This document shows positions 1,325-18,568 of a stretch of 32,000 nucleotides of DNA, piece by piece (the stretch's first letter is position 1; the number at the start of each line of letters is the position of its first letter). A program made the translations under genes and the position numbers. The stretch comes from Pyrococcus furiosus DSM 3638 (GTDB lineage: Archaea; Methanobacteriota_B; Thermococci; Thermococcales; Thermococcaceae): the NCBI RefSeq assembly GCF_000007305.1, contig NC_003413.1, positions 707,318-739,317 on the forward strand, written 5' to 3'. The notes below the pieces were generated by a model, which was not told the DNA's origin, ran no database searches, and saw only the letters and a program-made list of their open reading frames with translations.

Positions 1325-1678
1325 TCAAAGCGATTCAATAGCGGCTTTAACGTCCTCAAGCGGCTCTTTGATGACCTCAACTATGTCGTCGGCAGTGTTT
1401 ATTGCGATGTAAGTTTCTCTACCCTTCTCGTATAGGAGCACTGGGCAGGGAGCGAAGGAGCCAATCTCGTACTCGACCTTGGTCATCTCGTAGAACTTCT
1501 TCGGGTTGCAGACATAGAGAATCTTGTAAGGTTCCATCTCAACGCCAAGCTTTGCCTTAACCACGTCGCTCGGCGTGAACTCAAGCACTACCTTATAGCC
1601 CTTCTCCTCAAGCCTTGCCTTAAGCTTCTCCTCGGCCTCCTTCAAGGACATTTCAACTTTTCTCCTGTACCTGAACAT
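1325..1678 (-). CDS. DUF302-family protein
   Basis: 117 aa ORF with YKILYVCNPKKFYEM...FAPCPVLLYEKG...YIAINT, the DUF302 pattern. Confidence 0.75.
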   Translation of the reverse strand: MFRYRRKVEMSLKEAEEKLKARLEEKGYKVVLEFTPSDVVKAKLGVEMEPYKILYVCNPKKFYEMTKVEYEIGSFAPCPVLLYEKGRETYIAINTADDIVEVIKEPLEDVKAAIESL

Positions 1679-1691
1679 TCAACCACCCCCC

Positions 1692-3002
1692 TCAAAGTTT
1701 TGAGAGCGATTCGAAGAGCGCACTCCACAACTTCAGCGGCGTAATTTCGGTCAGCATGAGAATCCCAAGGACTATGAGGACAACGCCGAGGGTTACCTCC
1801 CACTTTGCACTCCTTGAAGCCCCCAGCGACAGCTTGTTAGAGAGGAACTTCCTGTTGACCCACTCTGCGAGATCTTTCGAGGATGTGAGGAGATAAACCG
1901 TGAGACCCATCCCGAGGCCGTACGTGCCCATAACCACGACTCCACTTAGGATGTCTCCACTAAGGGCCGCTGTGAGGACTGCAAAGCCCACGTAGGGAGC
2001 TATACATCCCAACCAAGTTGCCCCGAGGGCAGAGCCGAGGGCGAAGTCATAGATAAGGCCGCTCTTTTTTAAGACCCTGTCCGAGAGCGAGAAGCTCAAG
2101 ATGCGCTCAAGCCCTGTCCTGACGTCCTCGCTGATGAAGCTGAGGCCGACTACTATGAAGCCCGCTCCGCCGATTAGGTATAGCGCCCCCTGGATTCTCG
2201 AAGCATACTCCCCGAGACTACCAACGAGGGCACCGAGGAGGGCAAACGAAGCTACCATTCCCGTTACTATGGCCTCCACGCTCCTCTTTGCAAAGGTGAG
2301 CGAGAGCGTGCCCACGATTATAGGGAGGACGCAGGGAGAGAACACGCTCACGATTCCCGCGGAAAATATGGGAAGGAGAACGGCAAGACTCAGGTTTGTG
2401 TTGAGGTTCTCCTCCGAAGCTCCCTTTTCTGCCATCTCGCTTTGAGTGCCTGTACTCTCTGTAGGGCTTTGCAGATCGTCTCCTATAGCAGTCTTTACGA
2501 AAAATTCAAGGCCATCGGGGTTCAGCGCCCCAACGGCCACTCCCTTAAGAACCTTCGTCCCGTTAACAACTTTGAATATAACCATCGTTGGCGTTCCGGG
2601 AACCCCGACGCTGATCTCTTCCCCTGGCTTCTTGGGCGTGTAGTAGCCGAAGTTGTCTGGCTGAAGCACGATAACCTTATCCTCCACGCGGTAGCGGAGC
2701 GTCGTTATCTCCCTCCCCCTGTAAACGTCAACCGCCACCAAGTTCAGGCTTTTGAGAGCCTGTTTGGCCTTCTCCGTCGGGAAAACGCTCTCCTTCATAT
2801 AGCTACACGCGGGACAGCTCTCGGAGTGGTAGAAGATGAAGAAGTACTCTCCCTCGTGGGCGGATATCAGGGAATTGAGCTCTTCCTCGGTCGAAACGTC
2901 GTGGAACTTTAGCCCTCCGTAGGAGACCTCTCTCCCAGTAACGAGGCCTGCAAAGAGCAGTAAAACGATAAATGTTAGAAGCGCCCTCCTCACCCTGTTC
3001 AC
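1692..3002 (-). CDS. Thioredoxin-fold domain fused N-terminally to a CcdA/DsbD-like transmembrane electron-transfer domain
   Basis: 436 aa: signal/TM, YHSESCPACSYMKESVF redox motif, then polytopic region FSPCVLPIIVGTLSL...LGATWLGCIAPYVGF typical of CcdA. Confidence 0.85.
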   Translation of the reverse strand: MNRVRRALLTFIVLLLFAGLVTGREVSYGGLKFHDVSTEEELNSLISAHEGEYFFIFYHSESCPACSYMKESVFPTEKAKQALKSLNLVAVDVYRGREITTLRYRVEDKVIVLQPDNFGYYTPKKPGEEISVGVPGTPTMVIFKVVNGTKVLKGVAVGALNPDGLEFFVKTAIGDDLQSPTESTGTQSEMAEKGASEENLNTNLSLAVLLPIFSAGIVSVFSPCVLPIIVGTLSLTFAKRSVEAIVTGMVASFALLGALVGSLGEYASRIQGALYLIGGAGFIVVGLSFISEDVRTGLERILSFSLSDRVLKKSGLIYDFALGSALGATWLGCIAPYVGFAVLTAALSGDILSGVVVMGTYGLGMGLTVYLLTSSKDLAEWVNRKFLSNKLSLGASRSAKWEVTLGVVLIVLGILMLTEITPLKLWSALFESLSKL

Positions 3003-3054
3003 CTAAACTGCCTTTTCCCAGGGCTTAAAAAGGCTTTTTTTGAAGCGTTTTTCA

Positions 3055-3384
3055 TTAAAATGTCATCGGAACGTAGTCCTTCTCAAGGTATTTTGCTATG
3101 ATTTTTCCGACGTACTCTATTTTGGCATATCTCTGCAGAGAAACCTCAAACCCCTCAAGCTCTGCGATTCTCTTGCAGGCTATCGGGAATTTTCCAAGCT
3201 CTTTAAGCTTCTCAATCCATGGAAGGAAGCGCTCATCCCCATTAGCTATCGCTCTCTCTATAGGACCGAAGAGTATAACCTCAACATCTTCAACCCATCT
3301 GTGCTTAATTGCATTCACTGCCCACATGAAGCCCGGTAAGGCACTCTCGTTGTCGCTTGATATTATAACCAATACTTTGACCAT
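3055..3384 (-). CDS. DsrE-family protein
   Basis: MVKVLVIISSDNESALPGFMWAVNAIKHRWVEDVEVILFGPIERAI...: DsrE/peroxiredoxin-like fold pattern; immediately follows the 72-aa Cys-rich protein. Confidence 0.6.
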   Translation of the reverse strand: MVKVLVIISSDNESALPGFMWAVNAIKHRWVEDVEVILFGPIERAIANGDERFLPWIEKLKELGKFPIACKRIAELEGFEVSLQRYAKIEYVGKIIAKYLEKDYVPMTF

Positions 3385-3386
3385 CT

Positions 3387-3605
3387 TTACTCCTCCAGGG
3401 CCTTTATCAACTCCTCGAAGCTCCCGACAGATATCTCCTTTTCTCCCGCTATGACGTTTATATTACCACAACCGTACTTTGCGCAGAGTCCTATGCACTC
3501 CTCAATGCTTACCTTGTATCCCTTCTCTTTGAGGAGCTTCACAACGTCATCGAGTCTCTCTCCGGCGCAAAACTTGCACACCTTAGCCTCCATTAGTATC
3601 ACCAA
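3387..3605 (-). CDS. Small Cys-rich protein (72 aa), putative redox/sulfur relay
   Basis: VCKFCAGERLDDVVKLL...CIGLCAKYGCG; tight spacing with the DsrE-like gene. Confidence 0.6.
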   Translation of the reverse strand: MVILMEAKVCKFCAGERLDDVVKLLKEKGYKVSIEECIGLCAKYGCGNINVIAGEKEISVGSFEELIKALEE

Positions 3606-3750
3606 TCTGTGCTTAATGAAGCAGACTTATGGCTCTTATCCTTTTCAAAATGGAAAAATTCTCCTGGGAAAGCTTGACACTCCTGCTCCATGTAAGGTCC
3701 TCCAAGAACTTTTTAAGACAAATCAGTGGAAAATAATTCTGGTGATACCC

Positions 3751-3945
3751 GTGCCGATGGTGATAATTGAGGGCCCAAAGGCAGATGTTGAGACAAAGAG
3801 GGAGCTCGTAAGGAGGATAACCGAGGTTGTTAGAGAAGTCTACAAGGTCCACCACGTGAGCGTCATAATCCATGAGAACGAGACGGAAAACGTTGGCTAC
3901 GATGGCGAGCTTCTCTCAGACATAATAGCGAGGAGAAGGGGGGTA
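3751..3945 (+). CDS. 4-oxalocrotonate tautomerase family protein, possible 3' frameshift
   Basis: GTG start at 3751 after GGTGAT (3741-3746) gives (M)PMVIIEGPKADVETKRELVRRITEVV..., with the catalytic-type Pro directly after the initiator Met. Annotated ORF runs on to 4134 antisense to the MATE gene; removing one G from G6 (3938-3943) gives an immediate TAA. Confidence 0.65.
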
Positions 3946-3957
3946 AGCCCCTTCCCT

Positions 3958-5343
3958 TTACCTTTTACCCCCTGTAGCGGAGGTTTTCTTCAAAGCGCTT
4001 ATCCTCATCCGACCCCACAGGAATCCAACGATAGCAGCAACCATGTTTCCAATTACTATTCCAATCCACACTCCCCTGAGGCCCAGGGTCGTGTAGTGGA
4101 CGAAGATGTAGGCAAAGCCTACCTGCATCACTAGCGTCCTGAATATTGTGAGGATTAGGGACTTCTCGCCCTCCCCTATGCCCTGGAACATCGCCGAAGT
4201 CATCATTCCGAAGGGCGTGAGGACGAGAAAGACCGGGAGGGTTCTTAGAGCGCTTATGAGATCTCCCTTTATCACCTGGGCAGATTCCGAGTACGTGAAG
4301 AGGTATGCCACCTGGGGCGCGAAGAGCATTATGAATGCAACAACGGCAAGCTCTATCATGAAGGCGATCTTGATGGCATAGAGATAGGCAGTTTCAAGCT
4401 TCTCTACGTTTCTCTCCCCGTAGGCCGCTCCAGTGACGGATGTGGTCGCGGCCGCCATTCCGAGTATTGGAACTATGCCGAGCATCGTGATTCTCCACGC
4501 GCTCGTGAAGACTGCAACTCCGTTCTCCCCTCCAGCAGTTATGGCGACGCTGTTGAGGAAGAACATCGCTATGGACATCGAGAGCTGGGAGAGCGAGGAA
4601 GGCAGGCCAACCCGGAGGATGTCCTTTAGGATCTCCCTACTCGGTGAGAAGTCTCTAAGGGTTATGTCCACGTAGGTGTCCCGTTTTACGAAGAGCCAGT
4701 AGGCGATGAAGAGAGAGGTCACCACCATGGAGAGCAGCGTCGCGTAGGCCGCTCCGACGACGCCAAAGCCGAGGGTGTAGATAAATATCGGGTCAAGGAC
4801 TATGTTGAGGCCCGAGCCGAGCACCATAGCTAACATGGCCCTGTTGGCGTCTCCCTCTCCCCTAAGGATGCCGTTGCCGACGTTGTTGAAGACTATGATG
4901 AACGCCCCGGCAAGGAGAACCCTAGCATACTCTATGGCCAGCTCGACGGCTTCTCCTTTTGCGCCCATGGAGCGGAAGAGGGAATCTATAGCCGGGAGCA
5001 TTGTGATAGTTATCGTAACTCCAAGGATGAGGGAGAGGATGAGGGAATGGACGGCAACGTTGTCAGCTCCTTCCTTGTCCCTCGCGCCTATCCTTCTCGC
5101 TATCGCGGAGCTCGTGCCCACTCCCAGGCCGGCAGCGAGCGCTATTATGCCCATGAAGACCGGGAAGAAGAGGCCGACAGCCGCAAGCGATTCCGGGCCT
5201 AGGCCCGAGACCCATATTCCATCGGCGAGGTTGTATAGGGTCTGAACCGACATGCCTATCATCATGGGAATCGAGAGCCTGACTATGGCCTTTTTGGGGT
5301 CGCCCCTCAAAAGCTGGACGCCCTTGGTGGTTTTTTCACTCAT
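3958..5343 (-). CDS. MATE family efflux transporter
   Basis: 461 aa, 12-TM-like; LSIPMMIGMSVQTLYNLADGIWVSGLGPESLAAVGL and central repeat VGLPSSLSQLSMSIAMFFLN. Confidence 0.9.
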   Translation of the reverse strand: MSEKTTKGVQLLRGDPKKAIVRLSIPMMIGMSVQTLYNLADGIWVSGLGPESLAAVGLFFPVFMGIIALAAGLGVGTSSAIARRIGARDKEGADNVAVHSLILSLILGVTITITMLPAIDSLFRSMGAKGEAVELAIEYARVLLAGAFIIVFNNVGNGILRGEGDANRAMLAMVLGSGLNIVLDPIFIYTLGFGVVGAAYATLLSMVVTSLFIAYWLFVKRDTYVDITLRDFSPSREILKDILRVGLPSSLSQLSMSIAMFFLNSVAITAGGENGVAVFTSAWRITMLGIVPILGMAAATTSVTGAAYGERNVEKLETAYLYAIKIAFMIELAVVAFIMLFAPQVAYLFTYSESAQVIKGDLISALRTLPVFLVLTPFGMMTSAMFQGIGEGEKSLILTIFRTLVMQVGFAYIFVHYTTLGLRGVWIGIVIGNMVAAIVGFLWGRMRISALKKTSATGGKR

Positions 5344-6924: not shown

Positions 6925-7032
6925 GGGGCCAGCAATCAAAAGCATCGAGATCAAGTCGGGGATTTGCCTTTCAGTATGCGTGATCTTGAGAAAACCCTAT
7001 TAACCCTGCCGGTGAAATTAAAAGGGGATATT

Positions 7033-7497
7033 ATGAAAACGCTCGTCGTTTTCTATTCCCGAAGCGGGACCACTAAGAGAGTGGCTCAAGAGCTCGCGAA
7101 AGCCCTTGGTGCCGACATCGATGAGGTTATAGACAAGAAGTCCCGTAAAGGCATCCTGGGATTTCTTAGAGCTGGTTATGATGCTACGAGAGGCAGGACT
7201 ACTAGAATTGAGTTCACAAAAGATCTCTCAGAATATGACGTGGTTATTATAGGGACTCCGGTATGGAACGGACGAGTAACACCGGCAATTAGGACATATC
7301 TTCTGGAGAATAGAGAAAATATAAAACAAGCTATTTTCTTCGCAACATGTGCTGGGAGACCTGGGAAATGTCTTAAACAGATGGAAGAGATATATGGGGG
7401 CAAAGTCCTCTTAAGGAAGGTCCTCCTAAGAAAAGAACTAGAAAAAGGAATAGAAGAGTTGAAGAGGAATATTGAAAATCCTTATCTTTTGTTGTGA
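7033..7497 (+). CDS. Flavodoxin family protein
   Basis: MKTLVVFYSRSGTTKRVAQELAKALGADIDEV...VVIIGTPVWNGRVTPAIRTYL; internal ATG at 7033 preferred over 6964. Confidence 0.9.
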   Translation: MKTLVVFYSRSGTTKRVAQELAKALGADIDEVIDKKSRKGILGFLRAGYDATRGRTTRIEFTKDLSEYDVVIIGTPVWNGRVTPAIRTYLLENRENIKQAIFFATCAGRPGKCLKQMEEIYGGKVLLRKVLLRKELEKGIEELKRNIENPYLLL

Positions 7498-10159: not shown

Positions 10160-10420
10160 AAAACACCTTCGAGTGGACAAAAAAACCTATAATCACCCTC
10201 TACACCAAACAACACTACGAGCTGAACGGGATCTTCCTACCCTATGCTAAAGCATGCCCCATAGTCAAGGATACTGAGCCATACAAACTCCTATCAAGCT
10301 AAGTCGCACAGCAAACGATGAAAATCGTTGAGAGAAACTCCCGCTACATGCTCAACGAGAGAAAGAAGGGAAACTTTTCCGCGACTTCAGACTGTTTAAT
10401 GTCAGAGGTGTAAGGTTCAG
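10160..10420 (+). other. Coding-like remnants without an intact ORF (possible decayed gene or mobile element)
   Basis: Open short segments TFEWTKKPIITLYTKQHYELNGIFLPYAKACPIVKDTEPYKLLSS* and EKEGKLFRDFRLFNVRGVRFSV in different frames; identity not established. Confidence 0.3.
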
Positions 10421-10685
10421 TGTTTAATTCTGACACTAAGCCGTATTCTGCTTCTAAGGGTGGTCTCTGGTACTAACGCACTCTAGAGACTTCGCGTTGG
10501 AAGAAGTCAAAGCTGTGCTCCGAGCCAAAGTTAAGACCCATAGATCATGAACAGCATCCAGCTGGAAGGGTTGGAGACCCAATGGACATAGCCCACTTTA
10601 GCTGACAACGAAAAAGCTGGCATAATAACTAAAACAAAAAACTATAAAAATATGTTATTGTGTTATATTAAATTATGTGATTTAT

Positions 10686-11429
10686 ATGGGGGACAAGTTC
10701 AAGTCTCTGAAAAGGCTCAACATGATAGCGGGAGTGTTCCACCTGATACAGGGAGTCCTCATACTCCTGCTTTCCAGCGATTTCACCGTTACCATAACCC
10801 GAAACTACCTTAAGTTTGACGAGGCCACGAGGAGCCTCGTGACGGTAACGGAGAACCTCTTTGAGGTCAAGCTGGTGTACCTCATAGCCCTCTTCCCGTT
10901 CCTAACCGCTTTATCCCATCTCGCGGTTTCAACGGTGCTCTTTGAGTCCTACAAGAAGAACCTCTCCAAAGGCATCAATCCCTACCGCTGGGCCGAGTAC
11001 TCAGTGACCTCCTCGATCATGGTGGTCATAATAGCCCTCCTCGTCGGCATCTCGGACATAGGGACTCTCATGCTCATGTTCTCCATCAACGCGGCAATGA
11101 TATTCTTCGGCTACCTCATGGAGCTCCTTAACCAGTACACCGAGAAGGTCAACTGGAGCCCCTTCATCTTCGGCTCCTTCGCGGGGATAATGCCGTGGAT
11201 AGTCATCTTCATGATAATTCTCCGCTCAAACCCGCCGAGCTTCGTGATATGGATATTCGTCAGCATAGCGGTGTTCTTCAACCTCTTCCCGCTCAACATG
11301 GTGCTCCAGTACAAAAAGTGGGGCAAATGGGCGGACTACCTCTACGGAGAGAAGGTTTACATAATACTGAGCTTTGTCTCGAAGACCATACTCGTGTGGC
11401 AGGTCTACGCCGGAACGCTCCAGCCGTGA
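10686..11429 (+). CDS. Heliorhodopsin-like 7-TM protein (ORF also open from GTG at 10677)
   Basis: TM3-like NPYRWAEYSVTSSIMVVIIALLVG with Glu107 (ORF-track numbering), TM7-like GEKVYIILSFVSKTILVWQVYAGTL with Lys236, and His22/His81 in TM1/TM2. GTGAT sits upstream of ATG 10686 and an AT-rich TATA-like box at about 10641-10655. Confidence 0.88.
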   Translation: MGDKFKSLKRLNMIAGVFHLIQGVLILLLSSDFTVTITRNYLKFDEATRSLVTVTENLFEVKLVYLIALFPFLTALSHLAVSTVLFESYKKNLSKGINPYRWAEYSVTSSIMVVIIALLVGISDIGTLMLMFSINAAMIFFGYLMELLNQYTEKVNWSPFIFGSFAGIMPWIVIFMIILRSNPPSFVIWIFVSIAVFFNLFPLNMVLQYKKWGKWADYLYGEKVYIILSFVSKTILVWQVYAGTLQP

Positions 11430-11464: not shown

Positions 11465-11689
11465 ATGGAAGATGAGTACGTTATAAAAGACCTCGACCAG
11501 TTCGTGGAGCTGTGGACGAGCATCTACAACACAGGAGGAAAGCCCGACTGGTCCCACATTCTGCCCTACTACAGCGAGAACATCCACTTCAGGGATAGCA
11601 TACAGGAGATACACGGCATAGAGGAGTTCAAAAAGATGGTGGAAAGACTCACAAAGCGCTCCAAGGAGCTCAAGTTTGTCATAAAGTAA
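11465..11689 (+). CDS. NTF2/SnoaL-like protein, probably truncated
   Basis: DLDQFVELWTSIYNTGGKPDWSHILPYYSENIHFRDSIQEIHGIEEFKKMVERLTKR: N-terminal half of an SnoaL-like domain; 74 aa versus the usual 110-150. Confidence 0.55.
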   Translation: MEDEYVIKDLDQFVELWTSIYNTGGKPDWSHILPYYSENIHFRDSIQEIHGIEEFKKMVERLTKRSKELKFVIK

Positions 11690-12129
11690 TCCTCCTCGGC
11701 CTTGCGTTCGCCCACATGGCGCCAATAAAGGTGGAAAACCCCGACGTGCTTGGCGTCCTCCTTACGGCCCTCCTTTGGGCACCCGCCAACGCCTCAAGCG
11801 AGCAGCTCCTCTGGCTCTATATATTCGACTCGTGGGGTCTCTACTCGGAAAAGCCGAAGCTCTCCTACAGACTAATCGGCCTCCTGCTCTTCTCGGCCTA
11901 CGTTAGGATCATACACACCCTGTTCTGGACGAAGTTCCTGCAGGTTGTCGATCCTAAGAGCGTCTTTGGAGTTATCTTCGTGCTCCTCACCACAATATCC
12001 GGCTACCTCCACATTATCGTGTGGCGCAGGTCGGGATAGATGGTGTTCACGTTCATACCCCACCTGCTTCTCAACATCGGCCCGCTCCTTTGGACGGGCT
12101 ATAGCATCCTGCCCTATCTCTGGAGGTGA
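11690..12129 (+). pseudogene. Polytopic membrane protein fragment with no clear start and an in-frame TAG
   Basis: Continuous frame VILLGLAFAHMAPIKVENPDVLGVLLTALLWAP...VVDPKSVFGVIFVLLTTISGYLHIIVWRRSG*MVFTFIPHLLLNIGPLLWTGYSILPYLWR*; TAG at 12037-12039. Confidence 0.5.
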
Positions 12130-12133
12130 TTTT

Positions 12134-12375
12134 ACGTGCCTCTGGTCCCTCCACCCCAAATACCTCGACTCCAAAGGCCTCGTCGCCCTATGGAGGGAGG
12201 GCTTGCTCGCCAAGAAGGTGCTCGAGGGGAAGACGAGGAGCTACAGGAACCATCCCCCAGCTCGAGCGCTTCAAAAACCATCCTGAGCCCCTGAGGGCTA
12301 TAAATGCCTACCTCTACGAGGTGTGGAAGGAGTTGCATAGGGGGCTACCGTTTTGACATTAGGAAGATGAGGAGA
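12134..12375 (+). pseudogene. Pyrimidine-dimer DNA glycosylase (archaeal/bacterial endonuclease V-like) remnant
   Basis: Merging frames gives CLWSLHPKYLDSKGLVALWREGLLAKKVLEGKTRSYRNHPQLERFKNHPEPLRAINAYLYEVWKELHRGYRFDIRKMRR. Two one-base shifts at C5 (12254-12258) and G5 (12340-12344); no canonical start after the GGAGGTGAT site (ACG where ATG is expected). Confidence 0.6.
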
Positions 12376-12390: not shown

Positions 12391-12957
12391 TCAGAGACCT
12401 TCCTCGTTCTCCTTCAGATTTTTCCTCACCTCATCCCTTATCGGCTTTAAAGCCTTCGTGTACTTCTCAAGAGTTTTGAGGAGTCTTTCAACCCTCTCTC
12501 TGTATTTCTCGTCTTTAAGCTCCTCACTCTCAAAGAGATCATCGACGTTGTAAAACAGAACTTGCCCTACGGGGAGCATTTTGTAATTTACTGCCGCTAA
12601 CCTTAACTCTTGGAGAAGTCTTACTCCACCTGTAACTGACGACACTGTGACTATTCCAACAGGTAAGCTCTCATACTCGTCAAATATTGTGTCGAGGAGT
12701 ATCTTGAGCTCTCCTGGATAACTTCCATTATATTCGGGGGCAACTATGGCAAGGGCATCGGCTTCAAGGATTTTTGCCCTATAGCGTTCTATTTCCGGTG
12801 TTACATTCCAGCGGTGGGTATAACAGAGGAGGTAGTCCTTCACATCTATAAGCTCAGCATCCCAACCAAGTTCTTTGGCCTTTTTTGTCAAATATCGAGC
12901 AACTTTCTCACTTTGTCTTCCTTTTCTTGCCGTTCCGAGAATAACTTTGAGCTTCAT
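12391..12957 (-). CDS. NADPH-dependent FMN reductase family protein
   Basis: MKLKVILGTARKGRQSEKVARYLTKKAKELG...ADALAIVAPEYNGSYPGELKILLDTIFDEY. Confidence 0.88.
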   Translation of the reverse strand: MKLKVILGTARKGRQSEKVARYLTKKAKELGWDAELIDVKDYLLCYTHRWNVTPEIERYRAKILEADALAIVAPEYNGSYPGELKILLDTIFDEYESLPVGIVTVSSVTGGVRLLQELRLAAVNYKMLPVGQVLFYNVDDLFESEELKDEKYRERVERLLKTLEKYTKALKPIRDEVRKNLKENEEGL

Positions 12958-13098
12958 GTTATCACCATATGAAATTTCTGATTTTTGAACTTTAAATTTA
13001 TCCTCTCGAAATGAAAAGTTTCGAAATTAAAAACTTTACACTTTGTTAGGACAACCTTTTTAAATTAGGGGAACCTAATTAATGATGGGGTAAACCAA

Positions 13099-13668
13099 AT
13101 GATAAGGGTTGGAGAAGTGGTTCCTGATTTCGAGGCCGATGCTTACTTTCCGGAGAAGGACGAAATAGGAAAGCTCAGGATTTCGGACTACAGAGGCAAA
13201 TGGGTCGTTCTGGCCTTTTATCCAGCGGACTTTACGTTTGTCTGCCCAACGGAGCTTGAGGAGCTCGCTGAGTATTATGAGGAATTCAAGAAGGAAGGAG
13301 CTGAAATAATAAGCGTTTCAACGGACACAGCTTATGTTCACAAAGCTTGGCATGATACTTCACCCGCTATAAAGAAAGTGAGATTTCCGATGCTTGCTGA
13401 TCCTGCTGGAAAGATATGTAGGCTCTTTGGAACATACATTGAAGATGAGGGCATCTCCTGGAGAGCTACCTTCATAATAGATCCTGATGGAAAAGTTGTT
13501 CACATGGAAATGCACGACAACAGCATAGGTAGAAGTGCTAAAGAGATACTCAGAAGGCTTAGGGCCGCTAAATTCGTTCGCGAGAATCCTGGAGTGGTCT
13601 GTCCAGCAAGCTGGGAACCTGGCAAGGAAGCCTTAAAAGTTAGCCTTGATCTTGTTGGGAAAATATGA
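13099..13668 (+). CDS. Peroxiredoxin (AhpC/TSA family)
   Basis: YRGKWVVLAFYPADFTFVCPTELEELAEYYEEF peroxidatic Cys motif and later VVCPASWEPGKE resolving Cys. Confidence 0.93.
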   Translation: MIRVGEVVPDFEADAYFPEKDEIGKLRISDYRGKWVVLAFYPADFTFVCPTELEELAEYYEEFKKEGAEIISVSTDTAYVHKAWHDTSPAIKKVRFPMLADPAGKICRLFGTYIEDEGISWRATFIIDPDGKVVHMEMHDNSIGRSAKEILRRLRAAKFVRENPGVVCPASWEPGKEALKVSLDLVGKI

Positions 13669-14002
13669 TTTTCTTTTCTTATTTCTCTTTATCGCAAAGA
13701 TGTGTACTTCCAAAGGAAAAACTATTTTGGAGCTAATTTTTAGATCTTGTAAAACGATTTTCCTCCCATATTTTCACTTTTGAAAGTATCATTTTTTAGA
13801 ATATTCAAAATTGGGCATTTTGTTTGGATTAAGTTCTGTAGATGTTCGATATTCGAATTTTAAATATTTGACATGTGAAATTTGTAGGTATTTTAAAAGA
13901 AACCTTTGACTGAGTGGCTCAAAATTTCGAATGTGAAATAGTAGCGTTAATAAACTACCCTAATTATTTTAGAATGTCCTAATAAATTTAGGAGGTGCAA
14001 AA

Positions 14003-14839
14003 ATGATAGGACAGTTTCTAATTACATTTAGAGAAGCATTAGAAGCAGCGATAATTGTTGCTATTATAATTGCCTACCTTAAACGTACTGATAGGGAAGA
14101 GCAAATCAGAGACGTATGGATAGGAGTTGGGTTATCGGTACTTGCTAGCGTAGTTCTAGGTGCAATAATCCTTGGACTTTACGGGGGAATTGAAGAGAAG
14201 GAGCTCTTTGAAGGCATTGCCTCTTACTTAGCTGTTATAGTTTTAACAAGCATGATCTACTGGATGGCTACCAAGGGAAGAAACATTAGAGCTGAAATAG
14301 AAAGGAAGGTAAGCAAGGCTATAAATCCTCTTGCCTTAGTGGGGTTTACCTTTATAGTAGTTTTTAGGGAGGGTCTTGAAACTGTGTTATTCCTTACACC
14401 TTTCGCTATCCAGGACTTGGGAGGAACTTTAATGGGACTTGTAAGTGGTATTATAGGTGCTTTGATTTTAGCGTATCTCATCTACGGTGTTGGGATGAGA
14501 ATAAACCTAAGGACGTTCTTCTACTACAGCTCGATACTGCTCGTTTTCGTTGCTGCTGGATTGGCTGGCTATGGAACTCACGAGCTCATTGAGTGGGCCG
14601 AAGAGGAGGGGATGAACCTCGGCTTTATTGAGGAGACAGCCTACAACCTTGGCATTCCTGAGGATAGTGTGTTCCATCACAAGGGAGTTATTGGTTCAAT
14701 CTTTGCAGTACTCTTTGGCTATTCCGTAAAGATGGAATGGGGAAGAGTGATAGTTCAATTCGGGTACTTAATAGTTACCCTATACCTCGTGCTTAGGGCC
14801 TATGGGCAGGAAACTCCAACCGCAAAGGCCGAGAAATGA
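14003..14839 (+). CDS. FTR1-family iron permease
   Basis: Two REx(G/A)LE motifs (TFREALEAAIIVAI and VFREGLETVLFL) in a 7-TM-like 278 aa protein. Confidence 0.9.
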   Translation: MIGQFLITFREALEAAIIVAIIIAYLKRTDREEQIRDVWIGVGLSVLASVVLGAIILGLYGGIEEKELFEGIASYLAVIVLTSMIYWMATKGRNIRAEIERKVSKAINPLALVGFTFIVVFREGLETVLFLTPFAIQDLGGTLMGLVSGIIGALILAYLIYGVGMRINLRTFFYYSSILLVFVAAGLAGYGTHELIEWAEEEGMNLGFIEETAYNLGIPEDSVFHHKGVIGSIFAVLFGYSVKMEWGRVIVQFGYLIVTLYLVLRAYGQETPTAKAEK

Positions 14840-14937
14840 TTGATAATTTCTGAATGAACTCTTTTTCTAGTTTTTTCATTTTGAAATAATAACCCTTATA
14901 GTTTTCTTTTGTAAGAGTTGTTCTGGAGAGTGAAACA

Positions 14938-15522
14938 ATGAAGCTGAAAGCCTTATTTTTATTGCTGGCTTTGGGTAGTTTAATCGTTCCCAGGATAGAG
15001 GCAGAAGAATTTGAGTCATCTAAGGTGCACTTCTACATGTACGGTGCCTACTGGTGTCCCCACTGCCGTAACGTTAAGGAAAGTATAAAGGAACACTTCG
15101 GAGAGGAAACACTAACGTATTATGAAATAGAGGGGGTGGAGCACAACAAAAACAAGTTTGAAGAACTCTATCTGCTAACGGGTATAAGCGGTATTCCTGC
15201 TACGGCTATATTCTATGAGGGGGAAATCTATGCGGTGATAGAGGGAGAATTTGACGTCTCCAAAACATGGCAGATTATAACAGAGGCCAAAAACCAAGGT
15301 GGAGTGATTCTAGTGACCAGCGGTAAAGCATACATTTTGAAATGGGACAGTCAGGAAGTGCAGAAGTTAAAGGAAATCTTTTTGAGTGGAAAAGTGAATG
15401 AAACACAGAAAAAAGCAGAAGAAAAAAGCATATGTGGGCCTGCGAGCGTGCTTCTCCTATCCATGGGTGCGATCTACCTTAGAAAGCGTAATTATTCAAC
15501 AGAAGTGTCCAGTAATGTATAA
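14938..15522 (+). CDS. Secreted thioredoxin-fold protein with CGP-CTERM-like anchor
   Basis: N-terminal signal peptide, MYGAYWCPHCRNVKES active site, C-terminal CGPASVLLLSMGAIYLRKR. Confidence 0.8.
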   Translation: MKLKALFLLLALGSLIVPRIEAEEFESSKVHFYMYGAYWCPHCRNVKESIKEHFGEETLTYYEIEGVEHNKNKFEELYLLTGISGIPATAIFYEGEIYAVIEGEFDVSKTWQIITEAKNQGGVILVTSGKAYILKWDSQEVQKLKEIFLSGKVNETQKKAEEKSICGPASVLLLSMGAIYLRKRNYSTEVSSNV

Positions 15523-15557
15523 AAAGATAAAAACTGATTTATCATTGGTGAGAAAAT

Positions 15558-15950
15558 ATGAATTCAAAAGAATTCAGGAAGATAGCTCTTGTTGGAGCAA
15601 GCAAAAATCCAGCTAAGTATGGTAATATAATTCTAAAAGACCTTCTAAGCAAAGGCTTCGAAGTCCTCCCAGTGAACCCGAACTATGATGAGATTGAAGG
15701 CTTGAAGTGCTACAGAAGCGTGAGGGAGCTTCCGAAGGATGTGGACGTCATCGTCTTCGTTGTCCCACCCAAAGTAGGCTTGCAGGTGGCCAAGGAAGCT
15801 GTTGAAGCAGGCTTCAAAAAACTCTGGTTCCAGCCGGGGGCAGAAAGTGAAGAGATAAGGAGATTCTTAGAGAAAGCTGGAGTTGAGTACAGTTTCGGGA
15901 GATGTATAATGGTAGAAACTAGCAATAAGAAGATTTTTCTGGAGGTATGA
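15558..15950 (+). CDS. CoA-binding protein (Rossmann fold)
   Basis: KIALVGASKNPAKYGNIILKDLLSKGFEVLPVNPNYDEIEGLKCYRSVRELP...VVPPKVG...WFQPGAES. Confidence 0.88.
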   Translation: MNSKEFRKIALVGASKNPAKYGNIILKDLLSKGFEVLPVNPNYDEIEGLKCYRSVRELPKDVDVIVFVVPPKVGLQVAKEAVEAGFKKLWFQPGAESEEIRRFLEKAGVEYSFGRCIMVETSNKKIFLEV

Positions 15951-15953
15951 AAA

Positions 15954-16328
15954 ATGTTCTATTACGTGAGAAAGTTCAAGGAAGATCTTGACTTTTTATG
16001 GGAGCGCTTCAAGAAAAGGCTTGAAGAGGAGGGCTTTCTCATCATAGGGGAGAGAATTCCTGTGGCGATAGTAGAAAGAGAAGACGGCATTGTCGCGGAT
16101 TATCATCTATTGTTTATATGTGACAAAGAACTCGTGGCAGAGCTCGTGAAGATAAATCCAAATATAGGAGCTCTGCTACCCTGTACGGGCTTTGGTTACC
16201 GGAGAGAGGACGGAAACTACCTCGGGGTTACTTTACCCAGTGTGGCGTGGAAGATAGCGGGTGAGGAAGTGGCTGAGCTCATGAAGCCAATGGAAGAGAG
16301 GATCATCAGAATTATTGAGTCGCTGTAA
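15954..16328 (+). CDS. DUF302-family protein (second copy in window)
   Basis: 124 aa; YHLLFICDKELVAELVKINPNIGALLPCTGFGYRREDGNYLGVTLPSV. Confidence 0.7.
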   Translation: MFYYVRKFKEDLDFLWERFKKRLEEEGFLIIGERIPVAIVEREDGIVADYHLLFICDKELVAELVKINPNIGALLPCTGFGYRREDGNYLGVTLPSVAWKIAGEEVAELMKPMEERIIRIIESL

Positions 16329-16753: not shown

Positions 16754-17398
16754 TTGATGAAAGTCCTCGAATCTGCACCGAGCAGGTACGATAGGGGGAT
16801 CCGGATCATCACACTGGGGAAGCTCGATGAAGCATACGACCGGCTGACCTCCCGCATAAAGCCCGGCCAAAGGGTTCTTGACGTTGGATGCGGTACGGGG
16901 GCATTAACGCTAAGGGCCGCCCTGAGGGGTGCGAGGGTTAAGGCCATTGATATCAACCCCCAGATGCTTGAAATCGCACGAAAGAGGGTTGAAGAGGCGG
17001 GAGTCACGGGAATGGTCGAGCTGTGCGAGATGGGGGTTGCCGAACTCAACACCGAAGCATCGGAGGGCTACGATGCCGTGATGGCGGGCCTCTGCTTCTC
17101 CGAGCTGACCGAAGATGAGTTAAGCTACGCCCTTAGGGAGATTAAAAGAGTGTTAAAGCCCGGGGCACTCCTCCTTATTGCGGACGAAGCGGTGCCAGAG
17201 AGCCCCGTAAAGAGAGTTCTTTCGTGGCTGATAAGGGCCCCGCTCGCCGTTATCGCCTACCTCCTAATCCAGACCACAACGAGGGCCGTAAAGAACCTGC
17301 CCGAAAAGCTTGGGGAAGAGGGATTCCTGATAGAGTCCGTGAGACGGAGCTTTATGGAAGATTTCGTGGAGATTGTGGCGAGAAAACCCGGGAGATGA
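16754..17398 (+). CDS. Class I SAM-dependent methyltransferase
   Basis: RVLDVGCGTGALTLRAALRGARVKAIDINPQMLEIARKR; ends 3 nt before the HgcAB-like gene. Confidence 0.9.
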   Translation: MMKVLESAPSRYDRGIRIITLGKLDEAYDRLTSRIKPGQRVLDVGCGTGALTLRAALRGARVKAIDINPQMLEIARKRVEEAGVTGMVELCEMGVAELNTEASEGYDAVMAGLCFSELTEDELSYALREIKRVLKPGALLLIADEAVPESPVKRVLSWLIRAPLAVIAYLLIQTTTRAVKNLPEKLGEEGFLIESVRRSFMEDFVEIVARKPGR

Positions 17399-17401
17399 GC
17401 C

Positions 17402-18568
17402 GTGCTCCGCTACATCCTTGTTAACGTTGTGGGAACCCTCCTGCGGGCCTTTCCAATGCCGTGCAGGACGGGACTGGTTAAAATAGGGAACCCCGATGAG
17501 AACTCCCCCGTTTTCCTCACGGGCAACTACTGCGTGACGGTAGAGCGCGTGAGAAGGGTTCTCGAAAGGGAAGGGATTGACTGCTACCTCCTCGTTGCCA
17601 ACAGCAGGGACATCAACGTCTGGTGCTCGGCCGCAGGGGGCCATTTCACCAACCACGACGTCGTATCGGCACTGAAAACGAGCGAGATTGAAAAGCTCGT
17701 GAGGCATAGAAACGTAATACTCCCCCAGCTCGCCGCTGTGGGCATCGAGGCGAGGAAGGTGAGGGAGAAGACAGGGTGGAACGTCATATGGGGGCCCGTC
17801 TATGCCAGGGACATCCCGGAGTTCCTCAGGAACGGCTATAAAAAGACCCCGAAGATGAGAAGGGTGGAGTTTCCCCTCACCCAGCGGGTCGAGATGGCGA
17901 CCATGTGGGCATTTCCCTTTTCGTTGATAGCGGCTTTCATGGCGTTTTTTCTCTGGCGCAGTGCCCTCATTCCGCTGTTCCTCCTCAGCTGGCTGCTGCC
18001 CTACGCAATATTCGTTTCGTTTCCCCTGTACTCCAGGTTCCTGGACTCAAAGAAGAGAGGGCCGGGCGTAAGCAGGTACACAGTCATCTTTGATTTTGGT
18101 AAGATTCCTCTAATTTTCAAGGCGGCGTTTATTCTCCTCCTCGTTGCGTATGGAGCGCTCACTGGAGGGCTTAACCTCGAATTCGTCCTCCGTTGGGGCT
18201 TTGCTTCGCTGCTCATAATACTCATGATAAGCATCGACCTGATGGGGAGCACCCCGGTTTACAAGAGCGGCCTCCATGAAGAGCGCCTTTTGAGGGTTGC
18301 GCTCGACGGTGAGAGGTGCACGGGGTGCGGAGTGTGCGTGGACGTGTGCCCCAGGGCCTGTTATGAGGTCGATGGAGAGAATCACACCGTCATGATGCCG
18401 CGGGCGGACAAATGCGTTCAGTGTGGGGCATGCATCGTCCAGTGCCCCTTTGAGGCTCTCCGCTTTGAAGCCCCAGATGGGAGGGCTATTCCGCCGGAGA
18501 TTGTAAGGAGGTTCAAGCTCAACCTCATGGGGAAGAGGCTCGTGAGGGTGGATGAAGGGAGAGTTTAA
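17402..18568 (+). CDS. Fused HgcA-HgcB-like protein: corrinoid-binding domain, TM region and dicluster ferredoxin domain
   Basis: IGNPDENSPVFLTGNYCVTVERVRRVL; cap-helix-like DINVWCSAAGGHF; HRNVILPQLAAVGIEARKV..GWNVIWGPVYARDIPEFLRNGYKKTPKMRRVEF; TM helices; CTGCGVCVDVCP and CVQCGACIVQCP. Confidence 0.85.
   Translation: MLRYILVNVVGTLLRAFPMPCRTGLVKIGNPDENSPVFLTGNYCVTVERVRRVLEREGIDCYLLVANSRDINVWCSAAGGHFTNHDVVSALKTSEIEKLVRHRNVILPQLAAVGIEARKVREKTGWNVIWGPVYARDIPEFLRNGYKKTPKMRRVEFPLTQRVEMATMWAFPFSLIAAFMAFFLWRSALIPLFLLSWLLPYAIFVSFPLYSRFLDSKKRGPGVSRYTVIFDFGKIPLIFKAAFILLLVAYGALTGGLNLEFVLRWGFASLLIILMISIDLMGSTPVYKSGLHEERLLRVALDGERCTGCGVCVDVCPRACYEVDGENHTVMMPRADKCVQCGACIVQCPFEALRFEAPDGRAIPPEIVRRFKLNLMGKRLVRVDEGRV

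Follow-up and report, generated by a model that had tools for sequence, protein, structure and literature searches.

An intact heliorhodopsin gene in a laterally acquired and otherwise decayed cassette of Pyrococcus furiosus DSM 3638

The closest characterised relative of the gene described here is the heliorhodopsin (HeR) of Thermococcus sp. 2319x1 (TcHeR/NTH). Kim et al. 2021 (PMC7807009) report that this protein, expressed with retinal, absorbs maximally (lambda-max) at 530 nm, the most blue-shifted value among 13 HeRs, and map colour tuning to M205 and S232, with M145 and the FDEA44-47 loop also examined. Solved structures exist for TaHeR of Thermoplasmatales archaeon SG8-52-1 (6is6, 7u55) and for the actinobacterial prototype 48C12 (6su3); for TaHeR, whose host lacks retinal synthesis, retinal uptake through a lateral fenestration has been proposed (PMC9385722). 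Regulatory HeRs are encoded in an operon with the enzyme that they modulate, as is the case for TfHeR with photolyase (PMC9769723), AbHeR with glutamine synthetase (PMC9529153) and OcHeR with the OmrDE ABC transporter (PMC11109279). Short-chain dehydrogenases/reductases (SDRs) form one published group of HeR neighbours (PMC11109279), HeRs flanked by carotenoid and ultraviolet (UV) repair genes are known from the Thermoplasmatota (PMC8612252; PMC9585477), and links to peroxiredoxin and catalase have also been published. Here we give an account of the HeR gene PF0718 (PFDSM3638_03560) of Pyrococcus furiosus DSM 3638 and its surroundings, within a stretch of 32,000 nucleotides of contig NC_003413.1 (positions 707,318 to 739,317 of the forward strand), which we refer to as the window and number from its first letter.

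An earlier note on this DNA, made from the letters alone, had proposed a heliorhodopsin-like gene at 10686-11429. The identification is correct, and it was already known from public annotation and from a published close orthologue. The checks named in that note, namely placement in the family by profile search, conservation of the Lys and pigment formation, are likewise answered, either directly or through this orthologue. The exact protein is deposited as AAL80842.1, AFN03506.1, QEK78405.1 and WP_011011843.1 and is also encoded on CP003685.1, which we take to be the chromosome of P. furiosus COM1; 'heliorhodopsin HeR [Pyrococcus furiosus]' is its name in both RefSeq and UniProt. In the 2019 re-annotation, PF0718 is a 'hypothetical protein' in one transcription unit with PF0719 (PMC6640164, supplement). 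Our literature search returned no paper directly linking heliorhodopsin with Pyrococcus, and PF0718 as a query gave false matches only. What is new beyond the annotation is the decayed operon around the gene, the mobility of the cassette between domains, and a selectively kept HeR in a tractable hyperthermophile.

Family membership, fold and retinal site

PF0718 is a bona fide, intact member of the heliorhodopsins, a retinal-binding light receptor family; this assignment draws on hidden Markov models (HMMs), alignment and structure prediction. The open reading frame lies on the + strand at 10686..11429, running from an ATG at 10686 to a stop codon at 11427-11429, and encodes 247 amino acids (aa); a GTG at 10677, three codons 5' of the ATG, is an alternative start that would give a product of 250 aa. 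The protein covers the whole Pfam PF18761 profile (positions 1-242 of 242; E=1.8e-97, 325.9 bits, cutoff 26.7) and matches the NCBIfam equivalog NF038020 'heliorhodopsin HeR' over positions 1-244 of 244 (335.4 bits, cutoff 100), so that it falls inside the heliorhodopsin family at full length and above the curated cutoffs of both models. Its best sequence matches among solved structures are TaHeR 6is6 (E=2e-75) and HeR 48C12 (E about 6e-54), and HMM and PDB matches of this strength exclude chance.

An AlphaFold2 model built from a 40-sequence alignment (mean predicted local distance difference test score, pLDDT, of 92) contains seven transmembrane (TM) helices, the number that the earlier note had read from the sequence. 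It also shows an AB beta-hairpin with strands 34-45 and 50-62 and a helical BC loop (helix 86-94). With Foldseek, the model superimposes on TaHeR 6is6 at a TM-score of 0.94 and a root-mean-square deviation of 1.5 A, and on 48C12 6su3 at a TM-score of 0.89.

The Schiff-base Lys K233, the counterion E104 and the His pair H19/H78 align exactly with 48C12 K241, E107, H23 and H80, while S229 aligns with the Schiff-base partner Ser237; all five residues, the Lys included, are invariant across the 40 aligned homologues. The motifs ILSFVSKTILVWQ (TM7) and NPYRWAEYS are present. The earlier note had picked out the same Lys, Glu and His pair as K236, E107, H22 and H81; the residues were right, while the numbers had been counted from the GTG at 10677 although the ATG at 10686 was named as the start. 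Using the list of conserved HeR residues in PMC7049168, and with PF0718 aligned to 48C12, TaHeR and 12 close relatives, we found the following kept: N12, H19, Q22, F70, H78, Y89, L93, N98, R101, W102, E104, Y105, M112, N135, M138, I139, G142, E146, W171, F198, N199, Q208, Y218, L219, E222, S229, K233, W238 and Q239. The Schiff-base cavity residues of 48C12 (N16, N101, R104, Y108, E230) are all matched, by N12, N98, R101, Y105 and E222, respectively. At the positions that hold the counterion, 48C12 Ser76 and Ser111 are replaced by T74 and T108, which keeps the hydroxyl group; Thr occurs at both positions in all Thermococcales sequences and in a metagenome-assembled genome (MAG) of Pseudothermotoga, and at the first position only in the HeRs of Fervidobacterium pennivorans and P0007.

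The HeR of Thermococcus sp. 2319x1 is 92.3% identical to PF0718; both proteins have 247 aa, align without indels and fall in one 90% cluster. They share FDEA44-47, M145, M205, S232, K233 and all retinal-pocket residues, and M145/M205/S232 is the blue-shifted colour-tuning set. None of the 19 substitutions between the two falls at a key position that was checked; one lies at position 177 (48C12 Tyr179), where the comparison gives Ile instead of Thr. The two hosts differ in growth temperature, about 100 °C for P. furiosus and 85 °C for Thermococcus sp. 2319x1. TaHeR, the best solved-structure match, is about 50% identical to PF0718 and has in common with it the Lys, the Glu, the His pair, a Met at the position of 48C12 Gln213 and a small Ala at the fenestration (Ala195 in PF0718, Ala200 in TaHeR), where 48C12 has the bulky Phe203. 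The two differ at T74/T108, where TaHeR has Ser, at Asn135 and Ile139, where it has Thr and Asn, and beside the Lys, where Ser232 stands against Ala. With 48C12 the identity is 44%, and 17 of the 17 listed polar or charged conserved residues are matched or conservatively replaced; relative to this protein, a blue-shifted absorption is predicted from Q213M, A240S and Q148M, and a wider fenestration from F203A.

Type-1 microbial rhodopsins resemble PF0718 in their seven TM helices and the Lys in the last helix. A bacteriorhodopsin-like identity was considered and rejected: there is no Pfam Bac_rhodopsin match at E<=1, the model matches type-1 structures only at TM-scores of 0.54-0.67 with 9-16% identity, the counterion is Glu and not Asp, and Ser replaces the second Asp. 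The charge distribution of PF0718 is in keeping with a predicted inverted topology: 13 Lys and Arg residues lie on the predicted cytoplasmic side against 5 on the other, which by a sequence rule would favour an orientation with the N-terminus inside.

A putative archaeal promoter was read from the sequence at 10634..10652 (+ strand), consisting of an A-rich stretch like a transcription factor B recognition element and a TATA-like box, cTATAAAAAta. The putative promoter lies 25-40 nt 5' of the two candidate start codons, and its A(C/T)ATAA core aligns upstream of the orthologues on contigs L007 and L017 (see below). This arrangement would fit an active promoter, from which a leaderless PF0718 mRNA or one with a very short leader would be made. 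Scans of the window for tRNA genes and Rfam families found nothing.

The ancestral operon and its decay in P. furiosus

In P. furiosus, HeR is the only intact gene of its cassette, every partner being a deletion remnant or a pseudogene. The partner genes are intact only in relatives, namely metagenome contig L018 (LDZR01000081.1; identical to L022), contig L017, a Thermococcaceae MAG contig (L007), the Pseudothermotoga MAG (L008) and Thermococcus zilligii (L016). The longest row is found on L018, where the genes are tightly spaced and co-directional, with gaps of 0-43 nt where starts are defined. It begins with HeR, followed by a SnoaL_2/NTF2-like protein (148 aa), an SDR (315 aa) nearest to LPOR-type SDRs, a flavin adenine dinucleotide (FAD)-dependent protein of the amine-oxidase/CrtI superfamily (527 aa) that aligns at full length but weakly with carotenoid isomerase TIGR02730, a Rieske/VanA_C oxygenase (321 aa), a membrane protein of 230 aa (X230) with a weak CPBP/Rce1-like signal, and a Pyr_excise (PF03013) pyrimidine-dimer DNA glycosylase. 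In Pfam, X230 gives BT1 at E=0.005 and Rce1-like at E=0.43 only; a Blh-like carotenoid oxygenase was considered for it and found no support. The Pseudothermotoga contig keeps HeR-SnoaL-SDR-oxidase, L007 and L017 keep HeR-Rieske-X230-Pyr_excise, T. zilligii keeps HeR-Rieske, and in Fervidobacterium HeR stands alone, after priA. The pyrimidine-dimer glycosylase, the O2-dependent Rieske oxygenase and the CrtI-like flavoenzyme of the intact operon point to a context of light, UV and oxygen. A link to UV repair recurs, with photolyase beside TfHeR and the pyrimidine-dimer glycosylase in the ancestral operon of PF0718. No description of the full partner set (NTF2-like, SDR, CrtI-like, Rieske, CPBP-like, Pyr_excise) was found in the literature searched.

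Several further features of these contigs were observed. On L018, HeR is directly preceded (4348-5262) by co-directional genes for a YgaP-like small membrane protein and a DUF4405/cytochrome b5 membrane protein, and an AsnC/Lrp-type regulator is encoded divergently; all three are absent from P. furiosus. The SnoaL-SDR-CrtI-like trio also occurs without HeR, at L023 6549-9599 and L024 2912-5874, with 63-69% identity to the HeR-linked trio. Both contigs have 35% GC and lack HeR in the 4-8 kb that flank the trio on each side, and on L023, the annotated one of the two, the trio lies between radical-SAM and 4-alpha-glucanotransferase genes in a bacterial context (FtsW/RodA). The trio is a separable module. 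The X230 gene of L007 has an in-frame TGA at 12185-12187 where P. furiosus and L018 have Trp, which is either independent decay or an assembly error. The Pyr_excise sequence beside HeR (L018 10781-10870; L007 12500-12555; window 12130-12180) has a conserved N-terminal (T/L)RLWSLHPKYLD in frame; this stretch has no ATG, GTG or TTG after the upstream stop and abuts the TGA of the membrane-protein gene, and gene callers start the HeR-adjoining Pyr_excise 20 residues too late.

All remnants in P. furiosus lie on the + strand. Upstream of HeR, a decayed SDR gene at 10339..10599 was recognised by tblastn with the SDRs of L017 and L018 and by blastn; it contains in-frame stops and internal deletions, and its counterpart is a 261-aa SDR beyond Pyr_excise in L017. 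Part of it is annotated as PFDSM3638_03555 'oxidoreductase' (PMC6640164). Downstream, PF0719 (11465..11689) is a truncated NTF2/SnoaL_2-like gene that keeps codons 1-74 of 148, with 91% identity to the L018 SnoaL_2 protein over residues 1-74, and ends in a TAA (11687-11689) made by a deletion junction. About 4 kb were lost at this junction, which lies at 11686: the 3' half of SnoaL, the genes for the SDR, the CrtI-like oxidase and the Rieske protein, and the 5' end of X230. Comparison with intact relatives identifies PF0720 (11686..12129) as the X230 remnant, which lacks its first 83 codons, resumes at codon 84 and carries an in-frame TAG at 12037-12039. The Pyr_excise pseudogene (12134..12372) was delimited from tblastn hits in three frames and a DNA alignment with the intact L007, L017 and L018 genes; an extra C (+1) stands in the C-run at about 12253-12257, 2 bp are deleted after 12340, and the 3' end is lost. 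Unlike the regulatory HeRs, the P. furiosus HeR stands without an intact adjoining partner, its downstream operon genes all being truncated or frameshifted.

Purifying selection has maintained HeR through the decay of its former operon partners. The pairwise ratio of non-synonymous to synonymous substitution rates (dN/dS) among the HeRs of the thermophile clade is 0.06-0.13. With differences between P. furiosus and L007 polarised by L017 as the outgroup, 13 synonymous changes in HeR fall on the P. furiosus branch, alongside 3 non-synonymous ones, which lie at G2, E87 and N156, in loops or the terminus; against a neutral expectation of about 1:3, the binomial probability is about 4e-6. The X230 remnant has 5 synonymous and 5 non-synonymous changes plus the stop on the same branch. 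The suggestion in the earlier note that retention of the key residues reflects a real function is thereby supported.

Lateral acquisition, neighbourhood and habitat

PF0718 sits in a laterally acquired cassette of high GC content at third codon positions (GC3). HeR and the adjoining remnants have GC3 values of 0.73-0.79, against 0.35-0.47 in the neighbouring native genes (nitroreductase, FMN reductase PF0721, peroxiredoxin PF0722 and FTR1). The DNA of the cassette is 93-95% identical to the Thermococcaceae MAG contig L007, which has 53% GC and GC3 values of 0.61-0.82 and whose flanks share nothing with the window.

The distribution of HeR was taken from a protein search; a scan of contigs with an exact peptide pattern gave 9 loci, without P. 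furiosus or the named Thermococcus genomes. The 90% cluster of PF0718 contains the HeRs of Thermococcus sp. 2319x1, T. stetteri and a Thermococcaceae MAG, and T. zilligii and Thermococcus sp. P6 have more distant Thermococcales HeRs. No other Pyrococcus HeR was among the 120 best protein matches. The HeR of the Pseudothermotoga MAG is 80% identical to the PF0718 protein and that of Fervidobacterium 69-71%. At the DNA level, the Pseudothermotoga gene is 85% identical to that of T. zilligii, compared with 77% between T. zilligii and P. furiosus, which indicates that the HeR gene has moved among the Thermococcales and between Archaea and Thermotogota. A flavodoxin gene 3 kb 5' of HeR on the Pseudothermotoga contig (6496-6963) encodes a protein 69% identical to the P. 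furiosus flavodoxin (window 6964-7497), so the sharing between Archaea and Thermotogota in this region goes beyond HeR.

On its 3' side, the cassette adjoins a block of peroxiredoxin, FMN reductase, CoA-binding and DUF302 genes (window 12391-16328). The same block lies beside HeR in T. zilligii and in the organism of L017/L018, in rearranged orientations, with peroxiredoxin and FMN reductase adjacent in P. furiosus, T. zilligii and L017/L018; the T. zilligii gene calls for these two are fragmentary. The flanks of L018 match P. furiosus at 80-86% DNA identity over the peroxiredoxin, FMN reductase, FTR1, CoA-binding and DUF302 genes. This recurrence suggests that the cassette lies in a conserved insertion neighbourhood or at a recombination hotspot.

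Two further compositional islands were seen in the window, one at 1325-5343 with DUF302, DsbD-like and MatE genes (GC3 0.66-0.70) and one at 16754-20639 with genes for a methyltransferase, a CdhD/Fer4 protein, a 304-aa protein and an ABC ATPase (GC3 0.60-0.74). Set against the native-looking values of 0.35-0.47, these islands make the window a mosaic of probable transfers. At 27963-31107, a TRASH-domain regulator gene and an HMA-domain P-type ATPase gene are divergently arranged and match the CopR/CopA copper system of P. furiosus; a homologous P-type ATPase region is also found near the T. zilligii HeR.

The earlier note had presumed a host living in the dark, and this presumption does not hold, as P. 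furiosus was isolated from beach sediment. Isolation sites were checked for P. furiosus, Thermococcus sp. 2319x1 and F. pennivorans. T. zilligii is a terrestrial organism, from a hot pool in New Zealand, and T. stetteri comes from a shallow solfataric field in the Kurils. F. pennivorans comes from terrestrial hot springs in the Azores, and Thermococcus sp. 2319x1 from a hot vent in the tidal zone (PMC4853606). From these sites it appears that the HeR clade lives where sunlight is available together with phototroph debris, a source of retinal and carotenoids.

Proposed function, chromophore source and significance

We regard it as reasonably probable that PF0718 is a retinal-binding green-light sensor that was laterally acquired, uses scavenged retinal and is kept under selection. 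By analogy with characterised HeRs, all-trans-retinal would be bound at K233 with E104 as the counterion, and absorption would be in the green near 530 nm, as in the 92%-identical Thermococcus orthologue. The photocycle would be slow and without ion transport, to judge from this orthologue, TaHeR and 48C12. A light signal would probably modulate a partner protein through the Lys-rich cytoplasmic BC and FG loops, as in other characterised HeRs. The genomic context and published HeR biology suggest a role in protection from damage by sunlight, UV and oxygen in shallow hot sediments. Retinal synthesis is most likely absent from P. furiosus, and scavenging is the most plausible chromophore source of PF0718; the retinal would probably derive from decaying phototroph material and enter through the lateral fenestration known from TaHeR.

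Several observations weigh against this interpretation. No retinal or carotenoid genes were found within the 32-kb window. Every candidate operon partner is dead in P. furiosus, which makes the output pathway a guess. The branch counts of HeR (13:3) and of the X230 pseudogene (5:5) do not differ significantly (Fisher p=0.19), and the pairwise omega (dN/dS) of this pseudogene is also low, at 0.19, so that the signal of selection may in part be older than the decay.

The same observations are what an unused relic would leave, an intact idle passenger of a decaying island that is never loaded with retinal and is still whole because transfer and decay are recent: pseudogene debris lies on both sides of HeR, the window holds no retinal pathway, and the contrast with X230 is weak in both measures. 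We nevertheless consider a relic unlikely. The 13:3 ratio on the P. furiosus branch departs strongly from neutrality (P=4e-6), and the 744 bp of HeR are free of frameshifts and stops, whereas the roughly 950 bp next door have acquired a large deletion, a stop codon and two indels. Upstream of the gene, the A(C/T)ATAA core of the TATA-like box aligns in two orthologues. Moreover, HeR is intact in every lineage examined, although each has lost different partners; this pattern of loss suggests that the benefit of HeR is independent of any one encoded neighbour.

A role that is independent of the chromophore or uses another ligand (an apoprotein, or one binding another polyene aldehyde, a carotenoid or zinc), for example as a light-independent membrane scaffold or regulator, appears to us improbable. 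In its favour, no retinal source was identified on scanning the window, zinc binding by HeRs is reported in work cited in PMC8612252, and a conserved carotenoid site has been proposed (bioRxiv 10.1101/2025.11.27.691015). Such a role is hard to reconcile with a retinal pocket and Schiff-base network that are invariant throughout, and the 92%-identical orthologue binds retinal.

It is very improbable that some Thermococcales make or process their own retinal or a retinal-like chromophore from isoprenoids by means of the NTF2-like protein, the LPOR/RDH-like SDR, the CrtISO/RetSat-like flavoenzyme and the Rieske oxygenase, with P. furiosus possibly using an unrecognised substitute. The gene order HeR-SnoaL-SDR-CrtI-like is common to Thermococcales and the Pseudothermotoga MAG, the gaps on L018 are short, the flavoenzyme aligns weakly but at full length with TIGR02730, and the SDR is closest to LPOR-type SDRs. 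All these scores are, however, far below the family cutoffs, and Blh, CCD and CrtB were seen in none of the loci. The trio also occurs without HeR nearby, on L023 and L024, and four lineages that kept HeR (P. furiosus, L007, L017 and T. zilligii) have lost the trio by deletion; as it occurs without HeR and is dispensable in these four HeR-bearing lineages, its candidacy as a dedicated retinal pathway was downgraded.

Ion transport, as a light-gated proton channel or pump contributing to the energy supply, can practically be set aside: the viral V2HeR3 is reported to transport protons (cited in PMC11109279; PMC12873467), but PF0718 belongs to the archaeal/bacterial clade nearest TaHeR and 48C12, the residues common to these three proteins are the conserved sensor-type set, and no translocation of ions is described for 48C12 in the abstract on its structure (PMC7049168).

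Beyond the reading of PF0718 as a green-light sensor with scavenged retinal, the loci considered together allow a broader and more tentative proposal: a mobile, HeR-headed 'sunlight damage' operon of surface-dwelling hyperthermophiles, exchanged between Thermococcales and Thermotogota, part of which possibly processes scavenged retinoids or carotenoids, with the P. furiosus HeR as an autonomous sensor at about 100 °C. If this is true, it would be the most thermophilic rhodopsin system, and in a genetically tractable host. The pattern of partner loss connects this HeR clade with protection against UV and oxidative damage in hot habitats exposed to the sun. A retinal protein from a host growing at 100 °C would be an extreme case for the stability of chromophore and photocycle and possibly a robust scaffold. 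P. furiosus COM1 is naturally competent and routinely engineered, and PF0718 offers a genetic test, in a native host, of the function of HeR.

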